From the NCBI GenBank assembly GCA_040349255.1, contig JBEQUE010000144.1, positions 15,524 to 79,523 on the forward strand: 64,000 nt of DNA, written 5' to 3'. Shown here piece after piece: positions 197 to 44,443 of this stretch. The stretch's first letter is position 1. Every line of letters begins with the position of its first letter. The notes under the pieces were generated by a model. That model saw only the letters and a program-made list of their open reading frames with translations, had not been told where the DNA came from and did not search any database. A program made the translations under genes and the position numbers. Source of the DNA: Acidobacteriota bacterium (lineage in GTDB: Bacteria; Acidobacteriota; Thermoanaerobaculia; Multivoradales; UBA5704).

Positions 197-2280
<2,084 letters not shown>

Positions 2281-2299
<19 letters not shown>

Positions 2300-4674
2300 G
2301 CGAGCCCTCCAGCCAGTCGTCCGGCGAGCAGTCGGGCGGCAATCCCTACGTCGGCCCGCGCGCCTTCCGGACCGGGGAGCTCCTCTTCGGCCGCGACCGC
2401 GAGGTGCGCGAGCTGCTCTCCATGTTGATCGCCGACCGCATCGTGCTCCTCTACTCCCCCTCGGGAGCGGGGAAGACCTCGCTGATCCAGGCCCGGCTCG
2501 TCAAGGCGCTCGAAGAGGAAGACCTCCGCGTCCTGCCGCTCCTGCGCGTCTCCTCCGCGCCGCGCCCCGAGGACGCGGAGCTTTGCCAGGGAGCCAACCG
2601 CTACCTGCTCGGCACCCTCCTCTCCCTCGATCCCGACCGGCGGATCCCCGTCGCCGAGCTGGTGCGCCTCGGTCTCGACGGCCTTCTCGAGCGGTTCGCC
2701 GAGGAGAGCCAGGACGACCGGCCGCAGGTGCTGGTCTTCGACCAGTTCGAGGAGATCCTGACCCTCGATCCGGCGGACCAGGAGAGCAAGCGGAAGTTCT
2801 TCGAGGAGGCCGGCGCCGCGTTGCGCAACCCGCAGCGCTGGGCGCTGTTCTCCATGCGGGAGGACTACATCGGCGCGCTGGAGCCCTACGTGGGCCACCT
2901 GCCCTCCCGGCTGCGCACCATGTTCCGCCTCGACCTGCTGAGCCCGGCGGCGGCGAGCCTCGCGATCCGCGAGCCGGCCCGCTCCCGAAAGGTGGACTTC
3001 AAGAAAGCCGCGGCCGACCTCCTGATCGACGACCTCCGGACCATGCTGGTCCAGGGACCGGACGGGACGGCCGAAAAGAAGAGCGGTCCCTTCATCGAAC
3101 CGGTCCAGCTCCAGGTGGTGTGCCACCGTCTCTGGAGCCGGCTGCCGGAGGGCGCGACGGCGATCGAGGCCGACCAGATCGATCCCAAGGGCGGCGACGT
3201 GGACGCGGCGCTGGCCGAGTACTACGCGGAGTGGGCCGGGAGGATCGCGCAAGGGGACGAGACCCGGGAGCGGCTCGTCCGGGACTGGTTCGAGAACGCG
3301 CTGATCACGGAGCACGGGACGCGCGGGCAGGTCCTTCTGACCCCCGGAGAAAGCCAGGGCCTGGACAACGAGACCATCCAGTCGCTGGTCAAGGAGGCCC
3401 ATCTGGTGCGGGCCGAGGCGCGGCGGGGCGCCACCTGGTTCGAGCTCGCCCACGACCGCCTGATCGGGCCGGTGAAGGCCGGCAATGCCGAGTGGCGGGA
3501 GACGCACCTCGACGAATTCCAGCGGCGCGCCCTGGCCTGGGGCGAGCGCGGCCTGTATCCCGAGGCGCTCCTGCTGCGCGGCAAGTCCCTGGAGGAGGCG
3601 GAGGCTGGGACCGGAACCCGCACGCTCACGGACCTCGAGAAGGATTTCCTGGAGGCCAGCCGCAAGGCCCGCGAGGAAGCCGAGAAGGAGCAGGAGCTCC
3701 GGCGCGCGGGAGAGGAGCTGGTCTGGCAGCGGCGCCAGGCCCGGCGCCTTGCAGCGTTCATGGTCGTCGCGCTGGCGCTCGCGGCCTTCGCGACCTACAG
3801 CTACATCCAAGCCCGGGCCGAGACGAAGAGAGCGAACCAGGAGACGGAGCGTGCCAACCAGGAAGCGAAGCGGGCGGGCAAGGCCGAACAGCTCGCCCGG
3901 CAGAAGATCGAGCAGCTCCAGGCGACGAACGACAAGCTGACCCTGGCCAGCGCGAAGCTGCTCGAACAGAGCGAGCAGCTCGGCACGAGCGCCCCCGTGG
4001 AGCAGGTCGCCGCGGCGAAGGAGTTGCTCGCGCAGACCGGGGGTGAGGACGTGGGCATACCTGCCTTGTCCACGCCGGTCCGCGTGCAGTTCTTCGCGCG
4101 GAGCTCGGGGAGAAACGACCGCGCCATGGCGGCGCTCCGGAAGCAGGGATTCGAGGTCGAGCCCGAGAAGGGCAGATCGACGGTGGTCAACGCGGTCTGG
4201 TACGGCCCGGGCGTGGAGGCCGAGAGCGTCCAGCAGGTGATCCTGACCCTCATCGGCTCCGGCGTGGAGATCCAGCGGGTCGCGCCCACCAGCAAGCCCG
4301 GCCTGATCCAGGTCGGGACCGACGAGAGGTGGCTCTATCGCGACGCCCTGACGGTAGATCAGGTCGCGGCGCTGCAGCCCTGCTCGTCGGAGGAGGATCT
4401 GGCCTGTTCCGGCGCCCTCTCGGTGCCACCCGGTGGCAATTCCCGTCCCAGGTGCCGGAACATCGTGGCCTACGCGCAGCCGGCGAGCGCGAATCCAGGC
4501 AGGGTCTACTGGCTCCGCATCACCGCCGGCGGCCGGCCCTTCGAATGCAAGGACCTGATGTCCGGGCAGGGCTGCACCTTCTCCTTCCGCGGCAGGAAAT
4601 GGACCGCGACGCTCGGCGCCGTGGACTCCGCCGGCGCCGCGGCGGACGTGCGATTCGCTCCGGTGTGCGAGTAG
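2281..4674 (+). CDS. STAND-type P-loop NTPase (nSTAND-like) with coiled-coil segments, one predicted TM helix and a Cys-containing C-terminal domain
   Basis: ATG at 2281 overlaps the upstream gene by 19 nt. N-terminal GNPYVGPRAF..LLFGRD motif, Walker A SPSGAGKTSL, Walker B QVLVFDQFEE. Hydrophobic helix LAAFMVVALALAAFATYSYI flanked by Lys/Glu/Gln-rich coiled coil. Six Cys in the last ~110 aa. Confidence 0.8.
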
Positions 4675-4691
4675 GGCGGCGGTCTCGCCTC

Positions 4692-6524
4692 ATGATCAGC
4701 GAGAAGCGTCTCAACGCACTGCGACATCTGCCCGGCTATCTGCACGAGATCGAAGACGGGGATCGACTGCGCGCCCTCCTGAGCTCCTTTTCCTTCCTGG
4801 AAAGGAAGGTCAGAAACCTGAATGCCTCCGAGCTGGTTTCTGACTATGAGTATCTTCCCGAGGACTCCCCACTGCGGCTCGTCCAGGCGGCGGTACGACT
4901 GTCAGCCTATATCTTGGACCGTGATCCTGGCCAGCTTGCAGGCCATCTTCTTGGACGACTCCTAGATCACGACGCGACCGAAATCACGGACCTGTTGGAC
5001 ACAATACGGGAGCAGCACCCCTTAGGATTGTTTCCGACTGTAGCCTCAATGACGCGGCCCGGGGGGGCACTGCTTCAAACCTTTTCGGCACTGCCCTCTA
5101 TTGGCACCATCTACGCCATCGTTCCAACCCTTGATGGGGAGCGTGTCGTGTCCGCATCCTCGGACCGGACGATCCGGATCTGGAGCCTCGCGTCGGGCCA
5201 AGCGCTCCGGATTCTGAGGGGACATGAAAGAGAGGTCACTGCGCTCAAGCTCATATCCGACGGTCGCCTTGCCGTTTCAGGCTCACGAGATCGGACGGTA
5301 CGAATCTGGGACCTGGAAACGGGTATCCAGAAGATAAAAATGCCGACAGCTCGGGGAGTGGAGGCTATAGCAGTGACGCCGAATGGCCAACAGGCCATAG
5401 CCGGCCTGGATGATGGCTCGATCGAGGTTCTGTCCATCTCGACGGAAGATGTACAGCATCTGTTCGGACATGAGAAACAAATCCTTTGCCTTGCGATCAC
5501 GCCGGACGAACAACGCCTGATTTCTGGATCGGAAGACGGAACTCTGCGCGTCTGGAATCTGTCGAGCGGTGCCCTGGAGCGAGTCGAAAGCTTTGGAATG
5601 AAGGTCTGGTCCGTAATCGCAACGCCTGAGAGCAGCAGACTCATCTTCTCTCTCCAGGATGGTACCATCGCCATCCACAACCTGATCGACGGACGCTCGA
5701 TCGACAGATTCAAGGGGCACCGCTTTCCAGCAACTTTCCTGACCCTTGCACGAGACGGCAGGACTCTGATCTCTGCGTCCAGCGGAAAGATCGTGATTTG
5801 CGATCTTGAAAACGTACACACGCAAACGACCATGGCTACGCCAGGTAATCTCTCGGCCATGGCTCTCACCTTGGATGAAAATCGCGCGTTGATCAGTAGC
5901 TATAGCGGTCGGATAACCTTGTGGGATCTCTCTGCGCTTCGACCGACGGAAGAACAGGCCGAGGAGCACAGCATTGGCTCGCTTGCCTTGATTCCAGGCA
6001 GTGCTCTTCTTCTCTCCGCGTCGGGCCGCACAGTCAAGATCTGGGATGCCGAGAAAGGACAAGAGATCCGGACGCTAACCGGGCATACGGATAGAGTCGC
6101 GAGCCTCGCGGTGTTACCAAACGGCGCTTACGCGGTCTCAGGCTCGCTTGACAAGACCATCAAGGTTTGGGATCTGAGAACCGGGGAGAACCTCCGAACG
6201 CTCCAAGGGCATGAAAGCGCGATCATCGCCCTCGCCGTCACAGAGGACGGGAAACGCGTCATCTCCGGCGGCCTTCATGCCGAAGTGAAGGTTTGGTCGC
6301 TGGAGGATGGGCGTGAGCTCTACTCCCGACGCAGACCTCGCGGCTACTTGACGACGCTTGCAGCGACCTCGGACGGGCGCCTCGCCGTTGTCGGCTTGAG
6401 GATGAGGGGAATGCATGGCCGACGATTCTCGACCTTACGACAGGTCGTGTCGTCGGAGAGTTGCGCGGGCATGAGGATCCAGTGGAGACAGCGCTTTTCC
6501 TCCCGGGTGACAACCGCATTCTGA
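4692..6524 (+). CDS. WD40 beta-propeller repeat protein with N-terminal helical arm (sensor module of NACHT-WD40 type); frame is lost near 6395
   Basis: ATG at 4692, 17 nt after the upstream stop. 'FSFLERKV' arm motif followed by ~10 WD repeats (DRTIRIWSL, DRTVRIWDL, DGTLRVWNL, DKTIKVWDL, VKVWSLEDG...). The last ~40 codons of the ORF are out-of-frame garbage. GC is lower than in the two upstream genes. Confidence 0.7.
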   Translation: MISEKRLNALRHLPGYLHEIEDGDRLRALLSSFSFLERKVRNLNASELVSDYEYLPEDSPLRLVQAAVRLSAYILDRDPGQLAGHLLGRLLDHDATEITDLLDTIREQHPLGLFPTVASMTRPGGALLQTFSALPSIGTIYAIVPTLDGERVVSASSDRTIRIWSLASGQALRILRGHEREVTALKLISDGRLAVSGSRDRTVRIWDLETGIQKIKMPTARGVEAIAVTPNGQQAIAGLDDGSIEVLSISTEDVQHLFGHEKQILCLAITPDEQRLISGSEDGTLRVWNLSSGALERVESFGMKVWSVIATPESSRLIFSLQDGTIAIHNLIDGRSIDRFKGHRFPATFLTLARDGRTLISASSGKIVICDLENVHTQTTMATPGNLSAMALTLDENRALISSYSGRITLWDLSALRPTEEQAEEHSIGSLALIPGSALLLSASGRTVKIWDAEKGQEIRTLTGHTDRVASLAVLPNGAYAVSGSLDKTIKVWDLRTGENLRTLQGHESAIIALAVTEDGKRVISGGLHAEVKVWSLEDGRELYSRRRPRGYLTTLAATSDGRLAVVGLRMRGMHGRRFSTLRQVVSSESCAGMRIQWRQRFSSRVTTAF

Positions 6525-6904
6525 CGGGCTCCTTTGATGCCACCATCCGCCTGTGGGATTTTGCGACCCGCCGGGAGTTGCTTCGACTGGAGGGGCACGC
6601 TGACAGAATCCTGAGCCTGGCGGTGACTCCGGACGGTCGCCACATCGCATCGAGCTCGGACGACAATACAGTGCGTGTTTGGCGTCTCGATACAGGGGAG
6701 TGCCTGGCTGTTTTCTTCGCAGAGGGAATAAGCGCTGCTTGCGCCATCTCGTTGGACGCCCAGTGCGTCTATGCTGGCGAACTGTCGGGGAAACTGCACT
6801 TCCTGAAACGGAAACCCTCCGTCATTCCTCTGAAAGCAAGTCCCCCCACAACACATCCGCAACCCGGCGGTTCGCTTCCATCAGATCGACGCCCTTCTCC
6901 TTGA
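6461..6904 (+). CDS. Continuation of the WD40 repeat protein in another frame (2-3 more WD repeats). Together with 4692-6524 it is either a frameshifted pseudogene or a sequencing indel.
   Basis: In this frame the WD pattern continues upstream to ~6392 (LEDEGNAWPTILDLTTGRVVGELRGHEDPV...IRLWDF...VRVWRLDTGE). It overlaps the convergent gene 6822-9968 by ~80 nt. Confidence 0.5.
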   Translation: MRGHEDPVETALFLPGDNRILTGSFDATIRLWDFATRRELLRLEGHADRILSLAVTPDGRHIASSSDDNTVRVWRLDTGECLAVFFAEGISAACAISLDAQCVYAGELSGKLHFLKRKPSVIPLKASPPTTHPQPGGSLPSDRRPSP

Positions 6905-9900
6905 CCTGATCCTTGCCCTTGATGAAGTCGTGGAAGGAGTCGTGATAGAGGCGATAGCGCAACTCCGGACCGTCGTCTCCGTCCTCCACGGAAATGGGTT
7001 GGAGGAACTGGCTCCATTCGTCGAGAGCCATCTGGACCCGGGCGCGGTCCTGAATTCCGGAGAAGTCGGAGATCAGGCCGGTGGAGATCGGCTCCCTCGC
7101 CACGGTGAGGCCAACGAGGACGGGCAGCTTGTATTCGAACCAGCCCTGGGTATCCAGCTCCTTCATGCGCTCCCACTGATCCTCGTAATAACTCTGGAGC
7201 CCTGTCGGCAGCGTTGTGAGGTCGCGCGTCTTGTAGGCTCCCTTCTCGATCTCCGGGAGGACATAGTGGAGATACATGAAGTTTCCTTCGCTGCGCTTCA
7301 CGAGCTCGTCGACAAAGGTCGCCTCGTCCAGACCCTGAGCGGTGATGTAGGCTCCGATGCCCGGCCGCAGGGCGTAATTCTGAGTGAAAAGCCGGACATC
7401 CGCGAAATTGTTCTCCCTTTCCCTCTGTAGATCGATGGTGTGGCCTTCGCAGGTGAACTGGAGCTTGAACTGGCCGCGCCGCGAGGTGACCACGGCAAAC
7501 ACGCCCGGCGGCAGGTCGGAAGGCAAGTACAGAGTGTTCGCGCCCTTCGACACCGCGCCCGAATCGGCTTCGTCCAGCGCATCGACCAGGAAAAGGAGCT
7601 TCGTCCCCGAGGCGAGAAGCTTGGTCGAAATCCCGCCCAGAAGCTCCTTGAGAAACCGGGGATCACGGGAGGCCTCCGGCGGCAGGGCGGAGTAGCCGAG
7701 ATCGAAGTCCCGGATGAGCTGCGCGCAGAGGTTGGGAAGGAACTGGGAGGGCTTCGTGATTCCTTCGGCGCGCACGTTGAAGTGGAGCGGGTACCGCCGG
7801 AGCTGCGCAAGCCTGGCGACGATCGCGGTCTTGCCGATCCCCGGATCGCCGAGGACCTGAATGTAACCACTGTTGCTCTTCTGAACGAAGTCGTCGAGAG
7901 CGTCGAAAAGCCATTGCCTTCCGACGTAGCCTTCGGTCTTGCGGCGGATGAGAGGCGTGAAATCGAGGATGTGCTTCTGGATCTCGGGCGGAGCCCGCTT
8001 TTCTGCGGGTTCGCGGACGCCCGGGGCGTCTCCCAGCGCGATCCGTCCGTTAGCGTGCGCATAGATCACATAGGTGAGCCAGGCGGGATCGTCCGCGTCC
8101 GCTTCGCGGAGAGCGAGACGCGCGATGCGCGCGGCACGGCCGAACGTCTCTCCCTGCGCGAGCGCGCCGTAAAAGCTTCTGGCGAATTCGAAGGCCCGGG
8201 AATCCCGGACCGGCCAGGCCGGCCCCAGGAAGGCGCCGCAGCCACAGACCCGCACCCAGCGATCGGCCCACCCGCCCAGGCCGGTCAGGGACCATGCCTG
8301 CTGTCCGATCCAGCAGGCATTGAGGAAGACCAGGGGGCGATTCCTGCCGATCTCCGTCGCGAGCGCTCCTGTCAGGTCTCCTGCCCGAAAGAAGCTCTCA
8401 TCCTCCAGAGGCAGGGCGGATTCATTCGGCTGATCCGGATTGAAGCCGCCGTGGCCAACGAAGTGAAGGAGATCGAGGCCTCCCTTTCCCAGAATGGTTT
8501 CGATCTCCTCCGCCGAGGCGACCGGGACGGTGGCATCCTCGATCCCGGAATGATCGCGCGCGAGATCCGTCACGAGCCCCTGCTCCTCTTCGGCCCGGGT
8601 CAGCTCGGAGCTCGTCGTGAAGCACGCGAGCCGCCGCACCTGAATCTCGGCCGCAGGGCTCCTGTTTCCCGCCAGCCACCGGGTGAGCTCAAACTGGATG
8701 CAGAGAAAATCGTCGTCGATGACGTCGTCAGGATCCTCCGCGTCATACGGCTTGACCAGCTCCCAGGGAATCCAGGGCTCGTCGGAGATGATCGTCAGCG
8801 TGGTTACAGAACGCCGGATCTTCCGGTAGAGCAGCTGCATTTCGCCGCTGAAGAGCTCGCGGTAGAGGTCCTGGCCGAGAGCCTCCAGCTTGCGCCGGAT
8901 CTCGCCACGCAGCAGCAGAGAGTCGTCCGTGTCGATCCGTTCGCCCAATTTCCGGACCTTGTCCAGAATGGACGAGCGGTATTCCTCGACACGGCCCTGG
9001 AACGACGGCCCATCGACCCCCCGATACGAGAAGCCGTCGATGCCGACTGGCGAATGGAGGATGTAATGGAGCTGTGTTCTTCCGTCGCGGAATCCAATCG
9101 TGACGCGGAGCTCGAGATCGACCGGCGCTGCGCTGGAGCTTGGCAAGGAGCGCGTTCCTCCCCGGGTGTCCAGGCCGGCGCCCTGAACAGATGCCGGCAG
9201 GGCCTTCTCCCCTTCGGAGACATCTGACTGCCGAATCTTCAGAATGACGTGTCGGAAGCCGTATTTATTTAAATCAATACCGCTCTTTGCAAATGCCCCC
9301 TGAAGAGCGTGCGCGCTGTCGCGCGGGAGATCTATAATTACCTTTGTGCTACCTTCTAATACTTTTCTGATATTGACATCTGAAAGCTCTATGTCGAGAA
9401 ACTTGGCAAGTGCATATTGAAGCCTGCTTCTCTCTACTTCGGAAAACTGTGCAAACTGCAGATCCAGGGTTACCTCTACTTTAGTAGTGGGTTGTCCATA
9501 GAGAGTGAAGGAGGGGAAATAACGACGCGCTACCTCGTGGCGTTTATATATCCTACCTTCAATTTCACGCCTAGTCCATACCGAAAGGAGATAAGGAGGA
9601 TGACTCACGCTAGTTGCTCCACGCAATTCCTCGTAAGCTTTATGAGTCACCCTCCCGTTTGTGATTAGAAAGAATCCTTCTACTTTGAACCTAGCGAGTA
9701 TGTTAACTATATTCCCAAGTTCACCTGGCTTGACGGTAGCATCTGCACTCTGCTTGTACTTGAACTGAGCAGCCCAACGCAACCGGCTGGGTGTAGCATC
9801 TGGAAGCATTATTGTCTGAAGGAGAATTGCGTCGACACCTCCGTCTGGACCAACACCCTGATCCTGCACTCCAAATCCCTCGACTGCGAGCAGGTCCATG

Positions 9901-9968
9901 CAGAGCTCTTGGAAGCGGTATCCATCGATAGTCTGCCAATCGACAGAAATCGGCCTAGTTAGTGTCAT
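6822..9968 (-). CDS. Multidomain defence protein: N-terminal Mrr-like PD-(D/E)xK restriction-endonuclease domain, CHAT protease domain, NACHT-type STAND NTPase, helical C-terminus
   Basis: 1048-aa ORF. REase motif GPDGGVDAIL...AAQFKYK at N-terminus. CHAT: EPWIPWELV, LLHFVGHGG ... LVFLNACWIG. NTPase: Walker A GDPGIGKTAI, Walker B LLFLVDALDEAD. The first ~250 codons (9215-9968) are markedly AT-richer. Confidence 0.85.
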   Translation of the reverse strand: MTLTRPISVDWQTIDGYRFQELCMDLLAVEGFGVQDQGVGPDGGVDAILLQTIMLPDATPSRLRWAAQFKYKQSADATVKPGELGNIVNILARFKVEGFFLITNGRVTHKAYEELRGATSVSHPPYLLSVWTRREIEGRIYKRHEVARRYFPSFTLYGQPTTKVEVTLDLQFAQFSEVERSRLQYALAKFLDIELSDVNIRKVLEGSTKVIIDLPRDSAHALQGAFAKSGIDLNKYGFRHVILKIRQSDVSEGEKALPASVQGAGLDTRGGTRSLPSSSAAPVDLELRVTIGFRDGRTQLHYILHSPVGIDGFSYRGVDGPSFQGRVEEYRSSILDKVRKLGERIDTDDSLLLRGEIRRKLEALGQDLYRELFSGEMQLLYRKIRRSVTTLTIISDEPWIPWELVKPYDAEDPDDVIDDDFLCIQFELTRWLAGNRSPAAEIQVRRLACFTTSSELTRAEEEQGLVTDLARDHSGIEDATVPVASAEEIETILGKGGLDLLHFVGHGGFNPDQPNESALPLEDESFFRAGDLTGALATEIGRNRPLVFLNACWIGQQAWSLTGLGGWADRWVRVCGCGAFLGPAWPVRDSRAFEFARSFYGALAQGETFGRAARIARLALREADADDPAWLTYVIYAHANGRIALGDAPGVREPAEKRAPPEIQKHILDFTPLIRRKTEGYVGRQWLFDALDDFVQKSNSGYIQVLGDPGIGKTAIVARLAQLRRYPLHFNVRAEGITKPSQFLPNLCAQLIRDFDLGYSALPPEASRDPRFLKELLGGISTKLLASGTKLLFLVDALDEADSGAVSKGANTLYLPSDLPPGVFAVVTSRRGQFKLQFTCEGHTIDLQRERENNFADVRLFTQNYALRPGIGAYITAQGLDEATFVDELVKRSEGNFMYLHYVLPEIEKGAYKTRDLTTLPTGLQSYYEDQWERMKELDTQGWFEYKLPVLVGLTVAREPISTGLISDFSGIQDRARVQMALDEWSQFLQPISVEDGDDGPELRYRLYHDSFHDFIKGKDQVKEKGVDLMEANRRVADVLWGDLLSEE
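9131..9162. repeat. ~28-bp direct repeat (GGAGCTTGGCAAGGAG...CTCC), copy 1, inside the REase-CHAT-NACHT gene just downstream (in gene sense) of the low-GC module
   Basis: Near-identical to 10039-10070 by direct reading. Confidence 0.6.
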
Positions 9969-10038
9969 TTCTTATCTCTCTCGACAAAAATTGCGCCCGC
10001 AGTCGGGTCTGCGATAACCTGGAACCGCTTCGGCGACG

Positions 10039-10070
10039 CGCCGGAGCTTGGCAAGGACTCGCTCCTCCTC
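10039..10070. repeat. ~28-bp direct repeat copy 2 (GGAGCTTGGCAAGGAC...CTCCTC), just upstream of the gene start at 9968
   Basis: Matches 9131-9162. Together the two copies bracket the low-GC segment ~9215-10000. Confidence 0.6.
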
Positions 10071-10072
10071 AA

Positions 10073-10118
10073 GGCTTTCCGTCCGTCCTCGTCGATTATC
10101 TTATCGAGACTCCCGCCT
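10073..10118. repeat. ~46-bp boundary motif (GGCTTTCCGTCCGTCCTCGTCGATTATCTTATCGAGACTCCCGCCT), copy 1
   Basis: ~80% identical to 10504-10550. In frame it encodes GFPSVLVDYLIETPA versus GFPSVRVDYLIDTPA in the second copy. Confidence 0.5.
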
Positions 10119-10489
10119 TCAAGATACGTCCGTTCAGGCCCGAGCCGTCATGACCGGACGGTAGGCGTTATCCTTCCGCCATGCGCCAGCCCATTCCGAC
10201 GCTCTTCCTCCTCGCCCTGCCGCTCCTCGCCGCCTGCGCCACCTCTTCGACACCCCCGGCTCCATCGGCGATCACCGCACCCGCCGCACAGGCTCAGGCG
10301 GAATCTCCGGCTCGCGAAGAAGACGAGTACTCCCGCTACGAGCTGCTCGAACCCGGGCTCGGCGCGGTTCCACATTCTCTTCGAGGTCACCGCGACCGAG
10401 CCGGCGCGACGGTCTACTTCAACCCGATCCGCAAGGGCAGCGCCGCGAGCGACGAGTCGGTGCGCGACCGGGCGACCGGACAGCCGCTG
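10118..10489. repeat. ~372-bp direct repeat copy 1 (5' UTR plus first ~100 codons of the lipoprotein gene). It is the degenerate copy, with compensated indels.
   Basis: Aligns base-for-base with 11917-12287 (offset 1799 bp) with scattered substitutions and two indels ~50 nt apart. Confidence 0.75.
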
Positions 10490-10588
10490 AGCGCGTACCT
10501 CCCGGGTTTTCCATCTGTCCGCGTCGATTATCTCATTGATACGCCCGCCTGTCAGTCGAACACGGAGAACGAGACGCGGCCCGATTGA
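10181..10588 (+). pseudogene. Truncated, frameshifted duplicate of the lipoprotein gene 5' end (paralog of 11980-13251)
   Basis: Identical signal/lipobox (MRQPIPTL.LLALPLLAACATSS). A 14-residue stretch differs through a +1/-1 indel pair. The copy diverges after ...GQPL into the boundary motif and terminates. Confidence 0.6.
10504..10550. repeat. ~46-bp boundary motif copy 2 (GGGTTTTCCATCTGTCCGCGTCGATTATCTCATTGATACGCCCGCCT)
   Basis: See 10073-10118. It lies at the junction between the truncated lipoprotein copy and the 3' end of the DUF4157 gene. Confidence 0.5.
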
Positions 10589-11883
10589 CGGATCTGCGCC
10601 GCACGCCGCAACACCTTGGGATCGTGGCGCAGCCGTTCATAGACCCAGGGCTCCTGGTCCCGGAGCCTCCCCTCGCGCGCCCGGCGCTCGAGCTGGATCA
10701 GGAACTCGCCCATGGACTGATAGTAATTTTCATCGTACATCTCGCCCTTCTCGTCCCAGGTGAGCTCCTCTCCGAGAAGCGATCTCTTGAGGAGCGCGGC
10801 GGCGCGGCGGTTGTACGGGTAGGTATCGAACCCCTGCAGCTCGGCGCGCTCCTCCTTCGTGATCGTTCCCAGGATCCGTTTCGCGGAAAGAGCGGCGGCG
10901 CGCGGATTGTCCGGATAACCGTTGTAGCCCTGCAGCTCGGCCTCTTCCTGCCGGGACAGCGGCCCGGCGGCCTGCTTCGCGCGCAGCGCGGCGGCGCGCG
11001 GGTTCTCGCGCGTCCCATCCGGAGACCAGAGGCCGGCGTCGAAGCTGCGGTCCCGCGCCACGAGCCGCGAGAAATGGCCGCGAAGCTCCTCCTGCTCCGC
11101 CGGCGTGATCGTCCCCGCGTCCTGTTTCGCGTAGAGCATGGCGGCGCGCGGGTTGTCGGGGAAGCTCGCGATGCCGCGGAGCTCCGACAGCTCCGGCTTC
11201 GTGATCGTGCCGAGGATCCTCTTCTTCTGAAGCGCGGCGGCGCGCGGGTTGTTCGGATACGCGTTGCGCGCCTGCCGCTCCGCGACCTCTGGCGATGGTG
11301 GCGACGGCCTCTCCTCCACGGCGGGCGCCGGAGCGCCCGGCACCGGATCGCGGGCGATGACCGCAGGATGGAGCGACCCGGCGCCGGACCGCAGGCCCTG
11401 CGCCTCGGCCGGAGACGCGGCGCGAGCCATCCGATGCGCCTGCCGCTCCTGGGCGGAGTCCGGGGAGCCGAGCTGGAGCGGCCCCTCCGGCATGGGCGAC
11501 CCGGACCGCTGCATGACGTGGGACAGCTCGTGGTACAGGCGGTGGCGGCCGGTCTCGGTGTCCGGGGCGTAGCCGCCGCTTCCGAAAACGATGTGAGGAC
11601 CGAGAGTGTAGGCGTTGGCGTGCAGCGCGCGGGCCGACTCCGCCGCGCTCTCGCCGGTGTGGATCCGCACGTTGCTGAAGTCGAATCCGAGCCGCTGCTC
11701 GGCCGTGTCGCGGATCGAAGCGTCCAGCGGTTGACCCGGATGACGCAAAGCCCCCTCCGCGGTGGACGAAAGATCCTCGCCGGAAGCCGTGTCATTCCCC
11801 CGCTGGGAAACGCGCCGGCCGGACGAGGACGGAGAACGCATTCCGGTCGAAAACCCGCGCCGTTCGTGGTCGAACCTGTTCAT
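10552..11883 (-). CDS. DUF4157-type zincin-like metallopeptidase-domain protein with C-terminal tandem ~33-aa repeats
   Basis: N-terminal GQPLDASIRDTAEQRLGFDFSNVRIHTGESAAESARALHANAYTLGPHIVFG...HELSHVMQ (HExxH). Six to seven repeats of the consensus PDNPRAAAL.AKRILGTITKEE.AEL.G. Probable ATG at 11883 with a GGGAGG SD; the track ORF extends to a GTG at 11907. Confidence 0.8.
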   Translation of the reverse strand: MNRFDHERRGFSTGMRSPSSSGRRVSQRGNDTASGEDLSSTAEGALRHPGQPLDASIRDTAEQRLGFDFSNVRIHTGESAAESARALHANAYTLGPHIVFGSGGYAPDTETGRHRLYHELSHVMQRSGSPMPEGPLQLGSPDSAQERQAHRMARAASPAEAQGLRSGAGSLHPAVIARDPVPGAPAPAVEERPSPPSPEVAERQARNAYPNNPRAAALQKKRILGTITKPELSELRGIASFPDNPRAAMLYAKQDAGTITPAEQEELRGHFSRLVARDRSFDAGLWSPDGTRENPRAAALRAKQAAGPLSRQEEAELQGYNGYPDNPRAAALSAKRILGTITKEERAELQGFDTYPYNRRAAALLKRSLLGEELTWDEKGEMYDENYYQSMGEFLIQLERRAREGRLRDQEPWVYERLRHDPKVLRRAAQIRQSGRVSFSVFD

Positions 11884-11916
11884 GCTTGCTCTCCAGCCTC
11901 CCAACACCCCACATCT

Positions 11917-12287
11917 TCAAGATACGTGAGTTCCGGTCCCGAGCCGTCATGATCGGACGGCAGGCGCTATCCTTCCGCCATGCGCCAGCCCATTCCGACG
12001 CTCTCCCTCCTCGCCCTGCCGCTCCTCGCCGCCTGCGCCACCTCTTCGACACCTCCGGCTCCCTCGACGATCACGGCTCCCGCCGCACAGGCCCGGGCGG
12101 AGTCTCCGGATCGGGAGGAAGACGAGTACTCCCGCTACGAGCTGCTCGAACCCGGGTCGGCGCAGTTCCACATCCTCTTCGAGGTCACCGCGACCGAGCC
12201 CGGCGCGACGGTCTACTTCAACCCGATCCGCAAGGGAAGCGCCGCGAGCGACGAGTCGGTGCGCGACCGGGCGACCGGACAGCCTCT
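11917..12287. repeat. ~372-bp direct repeat copy 2 (intact copy, start of the full-length lipoprotein gene)
   Basis: See 10118-10489. Confidence 0.75.
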
Positions 12288-13251
12288 GCCCTTCGAGGAG
12301 GTCACCGGAGAGGAAGCGAGAGCCAGCGGCCTGCCCGACGCCGACCTGTCGATGAGCTACATCCGCATCCACCTGCCGCACCCGGTGCCGGAGGAAGGCG
12401 GGATCCGCCTGCTGATCGAGAAGACCTACAAGGACCCGCAAAGTTATGAGACCAAAGGCGGTGACCAGGACGGGCGCCTCGTCTTCCAGCGCACCCTGGG
12501 CATCCGCCGGAACTCGATCGTCCTGCCGCGGGGTTACGAGCTGACCGCCTGCAACGCGCCGGCCCAGATCCTGTCCGAGCCGGACGGCCGGGTCTCCGTG
12601 AGCTTCATGCACCCTGGACCCGACGCCTTTCCGCTGGTGATCGAAGCCCGCCGGACCGCTCCGACCGGGGCTTCCTCACCGGAAGCAAGCGAAAGACTGT
12701 CCGAACGGGCGCACCAGGACCGCGAGATCGTCTATTTCCTGCAGCAGCCCGAGACCCACGCTTTCGACCTCTACCACGACTACACCGAATCGAGGCCCGG
12801 CGTGGACCGCTATCTGAACGTCGTGCGCGCGGGCAGCACCGCCTCCAATCCCTCGGCGCGGAACCTCGACACCGGAGAGGTCCTCAAGGTCGAGACCCTG
12901 CGCGGCGACGCGCTCCCGAAGAGCGCTGTCGAAGAAGACGAGATTCCGCCGGACGCCGACGTCGTCGTGGCCCACTTCGCCCCGGTCCCGCCGGGAGGCT
13001 CGGTCCGCCTCCGCATCTCGGAGACCTACACCGATCCGAAGAGCTATCGGCTGGAAGGAGACGAGCTCGTCTTCGACCGCACTCTGGGCCGTCCGAGGAA
13101 CGCCGTCGTCCTCCCCGCCGGCTGGCTCCTGACCGCCAGCTCAATCCCCGCCCAGGTCTCCGAGACCGCCGACGGCCGGATCCGGCTGGATTTCACCAAT
13201 CCGCGGCCGGACGAGATTGCGGTGTTGATCAAGGCGCAGCGGCGCGAGTAG
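11980..13251 (+). CDS. Lipoprotein of unknown function with an internally duplicated ~75-aa domain
   Basis: Signal peptide plus lipobox LLAAC. Two similar segments: YKDPQSYETKGG...RLVFQRTLGIRRNSIVLPRGYELTA... and YTDPKSYRLEGDELVFDRTLGRPRNAVVLPAGWLLTA... Confidence 0.8.
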   Translation: MRQPIPTLSLLALPLLAACATSSTPPAPSTITAPAAQARAESPDREEDEYSRYELLEPGSAQFHILFEVTATEPGATVYFNPIRKGSAASDESVRDRATGQPLPFEEVTGEEARASGLPDADLSMSYIRIHLPHPVPEEGGIRLLIEKTYKDPQSYETKGGDQDGRLVFQRTLGIRRNSIVLPRGYELTACNAPAQILSEPDGRVSVSFMHPGPDAFPLVIEARRTAPTGASSPEASERLSERAHQDREIVYFLQQPETHAFDLYHDYTESRPGVDRYLNVVRAGSTASNPSARNLDTGEVLKVETLRGDALPKSAVEEDEIPPDADVVVAHFAPVPPGGSVRLRISETYTDPKSYRLEGDELVFDRTLGRPRNAVVLPAGWLLTASSIPAQVSETADGRIRLDFTNPRPDEIAVLIKAQRRE

Positions 13252-14287: not shown

Positions 14288-14851
14288 TTAGAGGAAGATC
14301 TCGCCGAGAGGGATCTCCAGGCCGGGCAGGAGCGGGCTGGTCAGAATGTCGCCATCCGCCGCGGTCAGCTCCGCGCCCCCCTGGAGGCATTCCCCCATCC
14401 TGCGGAAGATCCGGGCCGCGTTCCGCGTCGGATCGACCATCCAGTACTCCTGGACGCCCAGGATCTCATAGCGCTCCAATTTGAGACCCTCGTCCCGTTT
14501 CCGAGTCGACGGCGAGAGCACCTCGATGACGAGGTCCGGCGCTCCCTGGACGTTCATCTCGGTAAGAATCCTCGCTCTCGCCTGGGAGACGAACAGGAGA
14601 TCCGGCTGGACGACGTCATGCTTGCCGAGCAGAACGTCGGCGGGAGCCACAAAGAGACGGCCCAGTCGATGACGGCGGACGAACGGCGCGATCCAGGAAG
14701 TCAGCTCGACGACGATGCTCTGATGCCACAGGTTCGGAGCCGCCGTCACGAAGTGCTCCCCGTCGAGGATCTCGTGACGGTACCCATCCTCCGGGAACAG
14801 GAGGTAGTCCTCGTAGGTGAGCTTGCGACGGACTGGATCTCGAAGGGCCAT
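14288..14851 (-). CDS. Uma2-family (DUF820) PD-(D/E)xK endonuclease-like protein
   Basis: MALRDPVRRKLTYEDYLLFPEDGYRHEILDGE...PDLVIEVLSPST.R.DEGLKLERY. The start is taken at an internal ATG; the track ORF extends upstream. Confidence 0.7.
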   Translation of the reverse strand: MALRDPVRRKLTYEDYLLFPEDGYRHEILDGEHFVTAAPNLWHQSIVVELTSWIAPFVRRHRLGRLFVAPADVLLGKHDVVQPDLLFVSQARARILTEMNVQGAPDLVIEVLSPSTRKRDEGLKLERYEILGVQEYWMVDPTRNAARIFRRMGECLQGGAELTAADGDILTSPLLPGLEIPLGEIFL

Positions 14852-15021
14852 GGCGACTCCCGTTTGCAGAGCCAGGAAGAGTTTAGCACGGGACACAATC
14901 CTCGGGTCGGAAGAAGTTCCGCCGGAGGATATCTCAGGACTCGCCGTCGTGGAACTCGCGACGAGGCTCGACTGCAATCGAGTCCGCGCTCCTCGAATCC
15001 TCGGACACCTTCTCCCGGAAT

Positions 15022-17424
15022 TCACGCTTTCCGGCGGCAGATAATCTTGTCTCCACTCGTTCCCACGTGATCAAAATACTTGGTTATGATCTCATGGCAA
15101 TGTCGACAACTGGGCCTTATGTCCTCGTGAAGTTCTAGGATGAGGGTATCCACTCTAGGAAGCCAGGAGGCGGAGGTCTCGAGGACCTCGACCTCAGAGC
15201 CTTCGATGTCGAGCTTCAGTATGTCGATGAAAGAGATGCCATACTCCTCCATAAGCCCATCGACAGTGACGGCTGGAACGGTTTGCATAACACTCCTACC
15301 ATCTAGATCACCTTCTACGGTCTGGAATCCCCATGCTCCACTTCCACCATCGATAACCTGGACGCAGGCTTTCTTGCACCAGAGCGCCCCTCTCACTGGG
15401 AATATATTTGGGAAAGGCATCGAATTTCGAACCAGGAGTTGAAAGTTGTGTTCCTCGGGTTCGATCGCGATGATTCGGGCATCGGGATATCGCAGGGCAA
15501 AGTCAACCGATGAAGCACCTATGTTGGCTCCCCCGTCAACAATCACTTTTGGAGGATGTCCGACCTCAAGGATATGAGGCTTCTCGCGGAAGATCTCGCG
15601 ATACACATCGAGATCCGTGGTCTCTGGTCGTATGTGCAGAATGTGACTACCTTCCAGGGCAACCCTTATTGTTGCCTCGTCGAGTTCGGTCCCATTGACA
15701 CTCTCTCCAGTCTCGCCAAACGAAAAATAAGAAGTAGCGGCCAGCCCAAGAAGGCGCTGCCCGACAGGCAGCAAAGAATGGATGTCTTCCCACTTATTTT
15801 CCCATAACGAACCTTGAAAGCCGAGTTCTTTCCAGAGGCGCTCGGCAAAATTGGGCATTATTGGCGCAGAGAGGATGGCCAAGAGCTTCGCCGCGAGCAG
15901 TTCTAGCGCGACGGCTGTCCGCCGCCTTTCATTTTGCGCGATAACTCGAAGCCAGCTTTCCTCGGATTTCGCGAAGCGCCTCGCATCGCGAACGAGCCAA
16001 CCGAGGACGCTTGCAGCGCACTGAGGCGAGAACGTCCTCGCCTCGTAGGCTTTGCTCGCCTGGGCAGTTAGCATGGTTAGTCGTTCTGCGAATCGCAAGT
16101 GCTCTTCCGCCCAACTACCAGCCCCAGGCACCCGTTCCTCGAACTCTCTAGCAGCCCGAACCGCCAATTCCCTGAGCCAAGCCTGCCATTCACGGATCAG
16201 TTCCCGGTCCACGTCCGCGGCGAGCTCAGCCAAACTGAAGTTGGTCCTCTCCACCTCGGGATATGTTGTCGCCATGTGAAAGCGTAGGGAGTCTGCGGGC
16301 ACCCTGCTCAGCAGATGCTGTCCCCAGATTGCATGCTGCCGGCTGGTTGAGAACTTGGAATGATCAAGAAGACGGAACTCGTTCATGAGCAGCGCCGAAG
16401 GAAGACGGATTTGCGAGTCAAAAGCCATCAGCAACGCGGGCACCAGAACTGCGTAGTAAAAAGCATTGTCGAATCCGAAACATTGAATAGCAAGGGAATC
16501 CCCATTCTTCCAGAATTGCTCCCAGCGGCCATCGAGATGCTGGGCATAGGTGAGATAGCGCGCGGCTTCGTCGCACCACGTATAGACTGTCTGGCCCTCG
16601 AATCCTGGAATTGCAATCGGCACCCCCCAGTTATCGTAATGAGAAACAGCAAAATTCCAGAAACCAACCTGTAGAGCCTGCTCGCAGAAAGATCTCAGAT
16701 TAGAGCTCATCGCCACCTTGCTCCAATATTCCTGCAGCCTGCCGCTATACTGGTCAAGCGGGAAGTAGAGGCGCTTCATAGCCCTGAAGGACGGAGGAGC
16801 GCCGCACTGGGCGCAGACCGGATCCAGAAGATCTACACAGCGGTTGGGCATACCGCAACTCTCACATCCGCTTCCCGTGGTACGGCTTCCACAATAGGGG
16901 CAGTGTCCAGAGATATAGTTCTCATAAAGCTGGCGACGACACGGTTCACAATAGGTAGTCGGGTCCACGCGGGAAATGAGCAATCCACGGGCATACAGGT
17001 TACCTAGAAAATCTTGTACGGTCGGTACGTAGAAGAGCGATGAATTCGGCCGAATAAACTGGTCGACGTCAATCCGCGCCCCCCTGAGCGTACTCGCTAT
17101 ACTTTCCGCCATTTGGTCTGCAACCTGCTGAGGGGAGACGCCAGCCTCCATTGCATGGATCTTGACGTCACTCTGATTGTCATCTGTACCAGTGAAAAAG
17201 TGAACCTCTGCGCCACGAAGCCGGAGGTAGCGCGACTGAATGTCTCCTGCAAGGTAGGGCCCGGAGAGATGGCCCACATGCAGATCGCCATTCGGGGTTG
17301 GGGGCGCTGCCATGACAAGTACGCGAAGAGAAGCATAGCGCAACGTATCCCGGCAGTCGCTCGCCAGGCCCTCGACCGCTCCATAACTAGAAATTATCTG
17401 CTTCTTCTCCCTGGGTTCTTCCAT
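15022..17424 (-). CDS. Methionyl-tRNA-synthetase-like class I aaRS catalytic domain (HIGH/KMSKS-like, Zn knuckles) fused to a C-terminal FkbM-family methyltransferase domain
   Basis: PPTPNGDLHVGHLSGPYLAGDIQSRYLRLRGAEVHFFTGTDDNQ (MetRS-like HIGH region). CEPC...CPYC...CESCG...CAQCG knuckles. LLDHSKFSTSRQ (KMSKS-like). C-terminus VVDGGANIGASSVDFALRYPDARIIAIEPEEHNFQLL (FkbM MT motif). ATG at 17424 with GGAGAG SD. Low-GC gene. Confidence 0.8.
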   Translation of the reverse strand: MEEPREKKQIISSYGAVEGLASDCRDTLRYASLRVLVMAAPPTPNGDLHVGHLSGPYLAGDIQSRYLRLRGAEVHFFTGTDDNQSDVKIHAMEAGVSPQQVADQMAESIASTLRGARIDVDQFIRPNSSLFYVPTVQDFLGNLYARGLLISRVDPTTYCEPCRRQLYENYISGHCPYCGSRTTGSGCESCGMPNRCVDLLDPVCAQCGAPPSFRAMKRLYFPLDQYSGRLQEYWSKVAMSSNLRSFCEQALQVGFWNFAVSHYDNWGVPIAIPGFEGQTVYTWCDEAARYLTYAQHLDGRWEQFWKNGDSLAIQCFGFDNAFYYAVLVPALLMAFDSQIRLPSALLMNEFRLLDHSKFSTSRQHAIWGQHLLSRVPADSLRFHMATTYPEVERTNFSLAELAADVDRELIREWQAWLRELAVRAAREFEERVPGAGSWAEEHLRFAERLTMLTAQASKAYEARTFSPQCAASVLGWLVRDARRFAKSEESWLRVIAQNERRRTAVALELLAAKLLAILSAPIMPNFAERLWKELGFQGSLWENKWEDIHSLLPVGQRLLGLAATSYFSFGETGESVNGTELDEATIRVALEGSHILHIRPETTDLDVYREIFREKPHILEVGHPPKVIVDGGANIGASSVDFALRYPDARIIAIEPEEHNFQLLVRNSMPFPNIFPVRGALWCKKACVQVIDGGSGAWGFQTVEGDLDGRSVMQTVPAVTVDGLMEEYGISFIDILKLDIEGSEVEVLETSASWLPRVDTLILELHEDIRPSCRHCHEIITKYFDHVGTSGDKIICRRKA

Positions 17425-17454
17425 ACACACTCTCCATGGCTGACTTAAATTAGC
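17425..17454. promoter_or_regulatory. 30-bp divergent intergenic spacer between the aaRS-like/FkbM gene and the CHAT-SIR2-NACHT gene. Promoters must overlap the coding regions.
   Basis: ATG 17424 (minus) and ATG 17455 (plus). Confidence 0.3.
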
Positions 17455-20400
17455 ATGCCTGACTATAACATACCGAAGACCTCGCCGAGAAGAGTCCTCG
17501 TTCTGTCGACAAACCCTGAGGATACCGAAAGGCTAGCACTTGAACGGGAAACCCGTCAAATTGAGCGTGCATTAGCGCATCGCGAAGGAAGTTTCACGGT
17601 GCGACACGCTATGGCTGCTCACCTTGAAGATCTCGAGGACAGCCTATTCGATTTTAAGCCGCAGTACGTTCATTTCTGCGGCCATGGCTTAAAAGGAGGC
17701 CGAGGTCTTGCCTTCCAGGATGACTCGGGAAGGACGAGTCCCGTTACCACGCGGCAGCTTAAGGAGTTGTTCTCTATCTTCAAAACGAACATCAGCTGCG
17801 TATTTCTCAATTGCTGCTTTTCGCGCCCCCAGGCAGAAGTGATTTCCGCTCATGTCCCCTACGTGATTGGAACAAGTGAGGCGTTTGACGATGAGTTGGC
17901 CGTTGTCTTCGCTTCAAAGTTCTACAAGGCGATTGGTCGTGGAAAAACGGTCCCATTTGCGTTCAAGTTCGCCCGCGCTGTTACCGCCGACAATTTGGAT
18001 TCCCTGATTCCGGTCCTAGTCCGAGGGCGGCGCAAAAATAAAACAAACCCTGGAGATAGCGTCGGCTCTTCTGGCACCAGCCAGTGGAAGGCAGGAAATT
18101 TAGGGCAACCCAAGGAGTTCCGCTCGTTCGATTTAGAAGCAAAGGAAGAACAGGCTTCGTTACACCTCAATACCTCGCAAAAAGAACAGGATCAGGATGC
18201 TCGGCGCGCTTCCCTGAGCCGCCTCTGGAATCGATTAGAACAAAAGCGCGAAGCCGTCATTTTTCTGGGTTCTGCTGCCTGCGCGGAGGGCTTCAAGGAG
18301 GGCAAGCCCTACCCCAGCTTGGATGCCATCGCCAAGCGAATTCTCGATGATGAAGGTCGAAGCACTGGCAATATGACCGACGTTCGCAAGGAGCTGAGAA
18401 ATACATTGCGGATGTGGACTGAAGGGGAGGGAGATCTTTCCGATTTTCTCCGAAAATATATTTCAGGGCAGCCCGGCGCTGCCCATCACTATCTTGCAGC
18501 CTTGGCTCTAGGCCTTTTCCCGGAGTTCAATCTCCTTCTGTTTGTAACGGCCGGATTCGATGACTTGATGGAGGAAGCATTCGTCAGTCTGCTAAGAGGT
18601 GAAACCCGACCCAAGATAAGGCATTACAGCATTGGGCATCAAGAAGAAACAGTTCCTAGAATTTTCGAGGAAGTCTCCGGTCAAGTGCGCAAGGGAGTGC
18701 CTGTTATACTCAAACTATTTGGCGATCTGGACGCAGAGAGTCCCCTGCTCTACCCAAAGACCAAAATTCGTCAGAAGCTTGGGAGCAGTATTCAAGGCTG
18801 GTTCAGCCGTCCCGTGCTCTTCATCGATTGCGGGCCCGAGGATAAAGCCTTTGAAGATTTGTTCTTTAAGACAGAAAAGCGTGGCCCCTTGTTTGTTATT
18901 GGTAAGAACCTTGCACAATATCGAAACGATCCTACTATTCATCATGTCGCCATATCGCTCATGGAATTCGGCCTAGAGTTCCTCGATATGGTGAGATCTA
19001 AAAATCAGGACCTTCTTAAGCGGGTAGAAGATCTCCTGCATAATGTAGATCCTCTCGCGCTCTATCCTGATTGTGAATCTATCATGGCACGCGCCGCTAT
19101 CGCCTCTCGCGCTTCGTTACTACGGGTGGAAGAGCGACTGCCGCGTAGCCGTTCCAATGAGGAAGGCCACGCCTTTGTGCCCATCGCTCGAATTGACACG
19201 CAACCTGATTTCGCGGCCTTCTTGCGGGACGGTAGGCCTCTCCTTGCATTAATCGGTGATTCCGGTTCCGGTAAGTCTACTCTCTTCTACCAAGTCCACC
19301 AAGCCGCGGGTGCTTTCATTTCGATCTTTTATGACATCCATCAACTTCAGGCCACGCGCACGCTTGCTGGTAGGCTTGCCCACGACTTCCTCTGTGACGA
19401 ACGCAATTTCGTCGACCTTGTTAGAGTACTCGACAAGGCATTGAAATTTGAGCAGCGAAAGCTTGTCATTTTTATTGATGGACTCAACGAAAGCCTTGAT
19501 CTGAAGCCTTCCACCTTGCGCTTTGAAATCGAGGATCTTGGCGCGAAACTGCCAGGAACAATCAAGATTGCCTATTCGTGCCGCAGAGTCTATTGGGACA
19601 ATTTCATCCGCAATACATCGCCGCTTTCCAAAGAACTATACTTTAATTCAAAAGAAATAGTTCTAGAGCACTTTTCTCCAAGAGAGGCGGAAAGCGCCTT
19701 CAAGTCATACCAGGAACTTTACGGATTCCTCGGTAACTATGCTTCATTGAGCTCCGAATTCAAGTTGAGAATTAAGGACCCGCTGATGTTGCGTATGCTC
19801 GCAGAGGGTTACGCGGGGAAGAAGCTTCCTGATTTCGCGCCTGCAGTGCTGATCTTCGATACTTACCATAAACGTTTCCGGCAGCGCTTCAAAGGCACTG
19901 TTGTACCGGCTTTCCTCGATGCGCTAGTGGCCGCGAAGGTAAATGAGACCGAGGCGGAACTCGCCTCCGATCAGTTCATCACTGAAGATGTGCGAACGCA
20001 CCCGAAACTCAGTCTTCTGATTCAACAGCAGATGTTGAATGCGCATCGGGGTGGGGACCCACTCCTGCTCCTCGAAGATGAAGGGATACTGACAGCTATC
20101 GATGACGATAGCACATCCTATCGATTCGCCTACGACCGGTTTTTTGAATATCTACTCGGAAAATCACTTTCAAAACTTCTGACTACCGGTTCTAGAGAGA
20201 GGTTCCGAGAGCGTCTTGAGAAGCAGATACGTAGATTAAGCCCCTTTCATTTTTCCTTCCTGCAAGCGCTGAAGTCGGAGGTCATTCGTCTCAACATTCT
20301 CGAGCCAAGCGGGCCCTGCTCCTTTTACGACCCTGAACTTGTGAGAGGACTTCTTGAGAACGAGGATGCGGGGATCGTTGCGTTCACGAAGGACCTGTTA

Positions 20401-21909: not shown

Positions 21910-22144
21910 GTATCCGCCATCTTTCAATAGCCGAGGCATTGCTACTCCCGCCGAGGTGATAAACCAAGCTGACCGCTTCACTGCATGTTGCCCTGACTCC
22001 AGCTGCCCGAATGGCCAGATTCCACAGATCATCATAGCTAGCATTAGCCATAAGGTCGTAGAATCCATACAGTTCAATCGGTCGGTCGTGCGTGACAACC
22101 ACGAAGGAAATCAGGAACTTCGATCTCATCGGGTTGGCCTCTCG

Positions 22145-22867: not shown

Positions 22868-22872
22868 TTCGA

Positions 22873-44253: not shown

Positions 44254-44443
44254 TGCTGCTATTCGAGCCGTTGAAATGGTGCGCACCATCCGTGAGGCGC
44301 ACTACGAACAGCTCAAGGAGCTGTCTCCGCAGGAGAAAATCGCGTTCTTCCGGGAAAAGGCAAGACGGCTGCACGCCGAGTTGGGAAAGCCCGAAGAGCT
44401 TCTGGCCCGCGCCAGCCAGGGAGCTGAGGCTCACTTCGGATAG
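44246..44443 (+). CDS. Hypothetical small protein
   Basis: 65-aa ORF overlapping the previous gene by 8 nt. Confidence 0.35.
   Translation: MSDAAIRAVEMVRTIREAHYEQLKELSPQEKIAFFREKARRLHAELGKPEELLARASQGAEAHFG

Follow-up and report, generated by a model that had tools for sequence, protein, structure and literature searches.

How does a STAND-type gene come by a new N-terminal effector, and can the event still be read in the DNA? Comparative genomics has shown that STAND and NLR-like genes mix effector, switch and sensor domains, and the events that create the combinations are rarely visible, since their scars erode. The question is raised here by a 64,000-nucleotide (nt) stretch of an Acidobacteriota contig (GenBank JBEQUE010000144.1, positions 15,524 to 79,523; hereafter the window), which carries on its minus strand, at 6822..9968, a single open reading frame (ORF) of 1048 codons for an Mrr-type restriction endonuclease (REase) domain, a small alpha/beta domain, a linker, a CHAT protease and a NACHT/STAND NTPase. 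An earlier note, made from the letters alone, had seen a low-GC 5' part in this gene, bracketed by direct repeats, and had proposed an insertion or replacement of the N-terminal module by site-specific or homology-facilitated recombination. Our analysis supports the view that the nuclease module is a later, compositionally foreign addition and that the direct repeat is a genuine scar; a duplicative insertion that was not site-specific is the probable cause.

As far as the sequence can tell, the domain gain is real, looks recent and has left a recombination scar; it is a single example, known here from one contig of a metagenome-assembled genome (MAG). The process is widely inferred and rarely seen, and the locus offers one clear example of it. 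The event is still legible in a foreign fragment, in a duplicated Shine-Dalgarno (SD) sequence and start codon, in an untranslated region (UTR) that has turned into a linker, and possibly in a coupling upstream ORF (uORF).

Domain organization of the fused gene

Both enzymatic domains ahead of the NTPase score above the Pfam gathering cut-offs: Mrr_cat (PF04471) at amino acids (aa) 13-118 with 41.4 bits (E 1.8e-10; cut-off 21), and CHAT (PF12770) at aa 364-627 with 65.6 bits (E 6.4e-18; cut-off 24). The NTPase region, aa 682-833, is of the AAA_16/NACHT type and falls just under both cut-offs (NACHT, 23.1 bits versus 26.7; AAA_16, 32.5 versus 32.6); it carries Walker A (GDPGIGKT, aa 707-714) and Walker B (LFLVDALDEA, aa 792-801) motifs. 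In the approximately 215 aa that follow it, no repeat domains were detected. The putative catalytic residues of the nuclease, D46 and Q68-F-K70 (D...QxK), are invariant in the alignment with its relatives P0055-58, and the His/Cys dyad of the CHAT protease (GHG, H506; NAC, C552) is kept in the closest CHAT-NACHT homologues, P0002-P0007. In an AlphaFold model with a predicted local distance difference test score (pLDDT) of 72, the predicted REase domain finds its top fold matches in the PDB among the nuclease domains of MspJI and AspBHI (E 2.5e-5 to 1.4e-4), and it resembles the Avs4 structure 8dgf_B weakly (E 0.018).

No second instance of the REase-adaptor-CHAT-NACHT architecture was present in the databases searched. 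The public record of the gene itself (MES1243467.1, our P0001, from an Acidobacteriota MAG) is a 928-aa 'CHAT domain-containing protein' that starts at codon 121. This annotation leaves out 9608-9968 (minus strand) and with it the Mrr_cat nuclease domain, a low-GC stretch that was probably discarded in gene calling.

Composition and relatives of the nuclease module

The estimate by eye of ~45% GC for the first ~250 codons (~9215-10000) was borne out. Windowed GC confirmed the difference, and a two-breakpoint likelihood fit over 8600-10600 placed a low-GC block at 9234-9992 with 46.8% GC, against 63.2% on its left and 66.1% on its right (log-likelihood gain of 31; support intervals 9199-9265 for the left breakpoint and 9988-9997 for the right). 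The figure of ~70% that the earlier note gave for the flanks and for the gene outside the module was too high: the remainder of the gene has ~63% and the nearby flanks, which are not uniform, have 62-70%, and 4700-10000 as a whole lies somewhat under the 69-71% of the surrounding chromosome. The block is the lowest 750-nt stretch of the whole window (mean 66.4%, sd 7.3). Within the fused gene, GC and GC at third codon positions (GC3) are 47.5% and 45.0% for codons 1-249, 70.5% and 76.9% for the linker, and 63% and 79.6% for codons 276-1048. The module segment differs in composition both from the DNA of the window and from the remainder of its own gene, as is expected of horizontally acquired DNA. 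Its reading frame is intact, the probability that 249 codons of such composition lack a stop by chance being 1e-6.

The acquired module (aa 1-248; 9225..9968, minus strand) consists of the REase domain at aa ~10-150 and of a beta-alpha-beta-beta-alpha-beta domain at aa ~160-248. Over aa 9-247 it shares 49-59% identity with four or five proteins of 442-459 aa (P0055-P0059) in which a REase is fused to an ECF sigma factor. These fusions, which are uncharacterised, have in common with the window protein the whole 248-aa module and its relatively low GC; their C-terminal partner, in contrast, is an ECF sigma factor and not CHAT-NACHT. The homology ends at ...GFRHVILKIRQS (KIRQS; aa 248, nt 9225), coinciding with the GC break. 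Beyond aa ~248 the linker shows no homology to the REase-sigma relatives, and the DNA upstream of the module's ATG has no similarity to the regions upstream of their genes. The REase-sigma genes are low in GC within their own loci (L004-L007) as well, with 59.6 versus 72.2% in L005 (6001-7365) and 48.6 versus 62% in L006/L007. In L006/L007 a Y1 (IS200/IS605-type) transposase gene adjoins the REase-sigma fusion gene.

No donor or source sequence of the module was identified, full-length relatives being at most 49-59% identical, and a tblastn search of plasmid and phage collections with the module gave no match. The most similar protein, P0060, comes from a soil protein assembly (SRR5262245) and is available at the protein level only; it has 130 aa and is 90% identical over module aa 9-130. 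Its N-terminus (MPPAGAGL) is unrelated to that of the module, a hint that this nuclease ORF has been joined elsewhere, too, at a point eight codons in.

Both parts of the module are found in other company. An exhaustive HMMER search showed the REase domain to be a promiscuous N-terminal module, present on response-regulator/histidine-kinase, NACHT-TPR, nSTAND1 and WD40 proteins. The middle domain (aa ~160-248; 9225-9490, minus strand) matches no Pfam family and no PDB sequence; it recurs behind HNH in P0205, an HNH-mid-TIR-nSTAND1-TPR protein, and at the N-terminus of P0090, a protein with a reverse-transcriptase domain. It may be an effector-adaptor domain.

The direct repeat corresponds to the start region of the gene

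The window contains just two exact copies of the 15-mer GGAGCTTGGCAAGGA, one at 9135-9149 and one at 10043-10057. The best alignment around it pairs 9123-9161 with 10031-10068 and has 33 identical columns out of 39, the other six being mismatches or indel columns that include one 1-nt gap. The null for this comparison was chosen to allow for the motif having been picked by eye: the best local score of flank against flank (160 nt each) was 46, and shuffles gave 16.7 ± 2.4 with a maximum of 30, none of the 2000 reaching the observed value, which argues against a chance match. The same score was reached by 2 of 1536 equally spaced pairs of real segments elsewhere in the window. The near-identical 28-bp repeat that had been described is thus genuine and above chance, but what is exact is only a 15-nt core in copies that are ~85% alike and differ by an indel. 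One copy does lie on each side of the module, yet neither touches it: GC-rich spacers of ~38 nt (9993-10030) and ~72 nt (9162-9233) separate them from the low-GC DNA, and the bracketing is set back from the compositional breakpoints by these distances.

Read on the coding strand, the internal copy (copy I; 9123..9161, minus) is GGAGGA, 9 nt, TTG CCA AGC TCC AGC GCA GCG CCG, that is, an SD, the TTG at 9146-9144 (codon 275) and the next 7 codons, and it aligns with the gene start of a homologous locus, L003. The upstream copy (copy U; 10031..10068, minus) is GGAGGAG, 7 nt, TTG CCA AGC TCC GGC GCG TCG CCG, with a second SD, a TTG at 10054-10052 and 7 codons. Judged by its letters, the repeat comprises the SD, the TTG start and the first 7-8 codons of the gene itself and is not a dedicated recombination site.

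The internal copy is where module-less homologues begin

The six closest homologues among the 5.8 billion proteins (P0002-P0007; 47-73% identity, 764-786 aa) are all without the N-terminal module, and all begin exactly at the position of the internal repeat copy. P0004 starts with MPSSNTLPVDLDLHV, P0007 with ...ASAAPVDLELRV, and P0002 and P0003 with MSQRPTLPVDLELRV (read from DNA); the window protein has L275-PSSSAAPVDLELRV at the matching point. At the DNA level, ATG CCG AGC TCC in L003 stands opposite TTG CCA AGC TCC in the window, and nucleotide similarity to L001, L002 and L003 ends at 9126-9148, in the case of L001 and L003 at the TTG/ATG position. The homologue genes lie in at least four unrelated gene neighbourhoods and have their own upstream signals. 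They have no conserved operon partner; the neighbours of all six differ, and none has upstream of it an eCIS_core gene, as the window has.

Because the homologues start at this point, in unrelated neighbourhoods with their own upstream signals, the internal copy marks, on this comparison, the point at which translation of an ancestral CHAT-NACHT gene of 774 codons began, and the upstream copy is a duplicate. Since all six are module-less and start at the internal repeat, the module was gained and not swapped. Of the 'insertion or replacement' that had been proposed, the insertion therefore stands and the replacement falls, nothing having been displaced; as a mechanism, effector swapping finds no backing in the homologous genes, comparison with which shows an addition and no displaced module.

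Leader, linker and upstream open reading frame

The linker (aa 249-274; 9147..9224, minus strand) is GC-rich and predicted to be disordered, with a pLDDT of ~30 in the model for aa 251-276. Toward its 3' end it consists of what used to be the 5' UTR and SD and is now translated: GGAGGA sits 9 nt before the TTG of codon 275, and the SD is read as Gly-Gly and the start as Leu275. GGA makes up 27% of the Gly codons of the fused gene, and codon rarity in the GGA-GGA...TTG relic is therefore not informative about selection. All three frames are open across the spacer stretch, so that only a 1-in-3 frame match was needed for the fusion. The source of the two spacers and of the leader found no match within the window or upstream of the REase-sigma homologues. 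We also considered 9165-9235 as a diverged copy of the promoter-like element described below, which would have made the duplication longer; it scored no better than shuffles.

On the other side of the module, the duplicated TTG opens a uORF of 29 codons (9965..10054, minus strand) whose TGA stop overlaps the ATG of the module (ATGA, 9968-9965). Such a stop/start overlap is a typical arrangement for termination-reinitiation coupling, and the uORF probably couples translation into the module in this way. The ancestral short CHAT-NACHT protein may still be made from the retained internal SD and TTG.

A second duplication in the same regulatory region

Directly upstream of copy U lies a promoter-like element (10073..10122, minus strand; TTGAAG-16-GATAAT at 10122-10095) that shares 41 of 50 columns with a third regulatory copy, T, at 10489..10555 (minus). 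Copy T consists of a second promoter-like element (CTGACA-17-GATAAT at 10555-10527) and a UTR/SD part, and is without a start codon; it begins with the TGA stop of the eCIS_core-domain gene (10552..11907, minus; Pfam PF13699, E 5e-28), this stop codon being part of its -35-like hexamer. Within the element, 46 nt at 10073-10118 (D1) recur at 10505-10550 with 83% identity. A promoter scan of the minus strand returned 4 putative sigma-70-type matches in the region versus 0.6 expected. The regulatory region is present in three nested minus-strand copies: T; U, running from 10122 to 10031 with promoter, UTR/SD, start and 7 codons; and I, from 9172-9123 onward, with part of the UTR, SD and start, followed by the gene. 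The differences between the two promoter-like copies (10073-10118 and 10505-10550) fall in one plus-strand codon phase in seven of eight cases (GFPSV[LR]VDYLI[ED]TPA; P ~0.008). Plus-strand coding of this repeat was considered for that reason and rejected, as no gene model fits the phase bias.

Between copies U and T lies a decaying duplicate, X' (10117..10485, plus strand), which is a copy of X (11915..12284, plus), the promoter and first ~100 codons of a lipoprotein-like gene at 11980..13251. The two are 93.5% identical over 371 columns. X' is 369 nt long, has two frameshifting indels, shows CTTCA microhomology at its junction with U and is flanked by a 68-nt duplication; its source is ~1.8 kb away, beyond the eCIS_core gene. 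The same regulatory 5' region has thus been hit by two duplication-plus-insertion events, one of them templated from 1.8 kb away.

Origin of the insert

The order of events that we consider probable begins with a free-standing 774-codon CHAT-NACHT gene with its TTG start at 9146. Just after the eighth codon of this gene, ~870 nt of DNA would have been inserted, the core of which, ~760 nt of foreign AT-rich DNA, would represent an Mrr-type REase/adaptor gene from its own ATG to about codon 248. The event would have re-copied ~40-50 nt of the target, namely the SD, the start codon and the first codons. The upstream copy would have kept the promoter-like element and would now open the uORF that ends on the module's ATG; the downstream copy and the GC-rich spacer would be read through in frame as a disordered linker, to give a REase-adaptor-linker-CHAT-NACHT product. 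From what is known of the families, a STAND switch already armed with a protease would thereby gain an effector that cuts DNA.

The joining would most likely have occurred by illegitimate recombination or template switching. We favour these processes because the adjacent insertion is templated and has microhomology, no recombinase is nearby, and matches to the repeat motif in 185,579 genomes stay at chance level. Their expected product is an insert with tens of re-copied target nt at its sides. A tandem duplication followed by a deletion would give the same pattern.

Several observations weigh against such a duplicative insertion. The case consists of a single contig and genome, and neither an empty-site relative nor a donor sequence was found for the insertion step or the spacers. 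The repeat copies are ~15% diverged, which implies that the event is old or that one copy came from a diverged donor allele. Finally, over the UTR, copy T resembles I (21/26) more than U (20/29 and 18/28), and for this reason a simple two-step series of local duplications does not fit.

The divergence of the copies would be accommodated by the main alternative, which we hold to be unlikely while taking it seriously: a donor allele that already carried promoter, uORF and REase upstream of a homologous gene would have entered by homology-facilitated recombination. One crossover in the shared 5' region would suffice, either by Campbell-type integration of a circle or with the other end joined illegitimately; of the two repeat copies, one would then stem from the 5' region of the donor and one from that of the recipient. 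A single crossover inherently leaves direct repeats of the homology around the insert. This route would explain how copies ~15% apart can flank an insert that is unameliorated, why U stands apart from the other two copies, and why the X' adjoining U shares 93.5% identity with X, a level to be expected of a relative's allele. Against it, no such allele exists among the 5.8 billion proteins, in which the nearest CHAT-NACHT protein is 73% identical and the fusion is unique; the homology available for the crossover is just ~40-50 nt; and the original fusion event is only shifted into the donor.

That the fusion was created on the computer, through assembly of a MAG contig into a chimera with reads of a low-GC organism, we consider very improbable. 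The locus has been assembled once, on one MAG contig, and the jump in composition is abrupt. However, the exact word shared by the repeats is just 15 nt long and lies away from the compositional junctions, the frame is unbroken through both junctions, both parts of the protein match full-length families, and the repeats are diverged and stand among other diverged duplications.

In its strongest form, the proposal of the earlier note would amount to a site-specific effector cassette, with the ~28 bp as an att-like site at which a recombinase inserts or exchanges N-terminal effectors in STAND genes. Direct repeats around a foreign module, and a partial third copy of the region nearby, are what such a cassette might leave, but we find it hardly credible. 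The motif is an SD, a start and first codons, orthologous to the starts of the module-less homologues; it is imperfect, with an indel and six mismatches, and is set back 38-72 nt from the foreign DNA. The 64 kb contain just two copies, and the 20-mer GCGCYGGAGCTTGGCAAGGA had 22 scattered, chance-level matches in unrelated taxa among 185,579 species genomes (a set that does not include the source MAG), none of the 22 beside a CHAT, NACHT or REase homologue. The predicted recurrence of the motif at the boundaries of other cassettes was thus not observed in that set. The ORFs scanned across 547-63929 yielded no member of an integrase, transposase or recombinase family, and there were no terminal inverted repeats at the ends of the low-GC segment. 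The neighbouring event, moreover, duplicated a different and longer part of the region. An imperfect duplication of ~39 nt set back from the foreign DNA is also unlike the exact 2-14 bp target duplications of transposable elements.

Least credible of all is an ancestral fusion whose relatives lost the module, its low GC reflecting functional constraint in a nuclease family whose REase-sigma members are also lower in GC than their surroundings, since an intact SD and TTG lie within the ORF exactly where six homologues start, a copy of that start region is duplicated upstream, and the homologues sit in unrelated neighbourhoods with upstream signals of their own.

Relation to known systems

The Avs and bNACHT groups of STAND proteins, reportedly described by the teams of Gao in 2022 and Kibby in 2023, are said to include members with N-terminal Mrr- or REase-type nuclease effectors. 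The fused protein resembles them in having an N-terminal PD-(D/E)xK nuclease ahead of a STAND NTPase; unlike them, it has a CHAT protease between nuclease and NTPase, and the ~215 aa after its NTPase do not form a long C-terminal repeat sensor. PADLOC gave a weak and partial match to the NTPase region of Avs1b (E 3.5e-7) and no full-length match to a defence system. Membership of the fused protein in a defined defence family could not be demonstrated.

Rhs and CdiA toxins exchange their tips at the C-terminus, with a conserved coding motif as homology, and leave displaced orphan tips behind. The window gene is similar in that a compositionally foreign effector piece has been joined to a conserved core gene. 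It differs in that the addition is N-terminal, the duplicated sequence is regulatory and includes the start codon, and there is no orphan. Template switching and Campbell-type single-crossover integration are general mechanisms of duplicative insertion. Their products are matched here by an insert flanked by a direct duplication of tens of target nt and by a neighbouring fragment with CTTCA microhomology; the mechanism is here read from its product, and the REase template is not in the window.

The CHAT-NACHT core of the gene and a window rich in nSTAND1, WD40, CHAT-SIR2-like and eCIS_core genes recall the CHAT-STAND conflict systems of multicellular and soil bacteria described by Kaur, Burroughs, Iyer and Aravind (eLife 2020, PMC7159879; 2021, PMC8195603), among whose effector classes REase-fold effectors are listed. 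Those studies give the combinatorial architectures, without a physical scar of an accretion event.

The locus supplies a search image for accretion events of this kind, namely a relic of SD and start codon within a linker, aligned to the starts of module-less homologues. It also has testable implications: two isoforms, uORF coupling, and a dual nuclease/protease output. A broader idea, which we offer as speculation and think improbable, is that duplicative, templated insertions land repeatedly in the promoter-proximal start region of bacterial NLR-like genes and that N-terminal effectors are generally acquired in this way. The upstream copy would provide promoter, SD and coupling uORF, the downstream copy would become a flexible linker, and the internal start would keep the old protein in production. 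If this were true, a new effector could be tried at low cost, and the two independent events within 1.5 kb of this gene would be the first footprints of the process.

Other features of the window

The window is chromosomal, as indicated by citrate synthase and aconitase genes, and rich in conflict genes, among them nSTAND1, WD40 and two eCIS_core genes. The eCIS_core gene next to copy T (10552-11907) has 96-nt periodic internal repeats, for instance at 10793-10998, which encode units of ~32 aa ('...PDNPRAAAL...'). The second eCIS_core protein, at 44431..46032, weakly resembles the anthrax lethal factor domain (ATLF). On the plus strand, an nSTAND1 ORF (547..4674) is overlapped in another frame by a WD40 ORF (4329..6524), and GC drops from ~70% to ~56% at ~4700; the overlap and the drop may mark another composite or acquired sensor part.

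A second low-GC island, with 50-58% GC, extends over 15000-26000. Besides a fusion of MetRS and FkbM methyltransferase (15022..17430), it has genes for a CHAT/SIR2-like protein of 1484 aa (17455..21909), a radical SAM/SPASM protein, a DegT aminotransferase and an inositol-1-phosphate synthase; at 14288..15025 there is a gene for a Uma2 endonuclease. Further along, at 47871-53122 (minus strand), DUF3323, DUF2399 and an SbcC/Rad50-like ATPase occur together and strengthen the likeness of the window to a defence island, a locus that we take to be a putative Wadjet-type (JetD/JetC-like) defence system.

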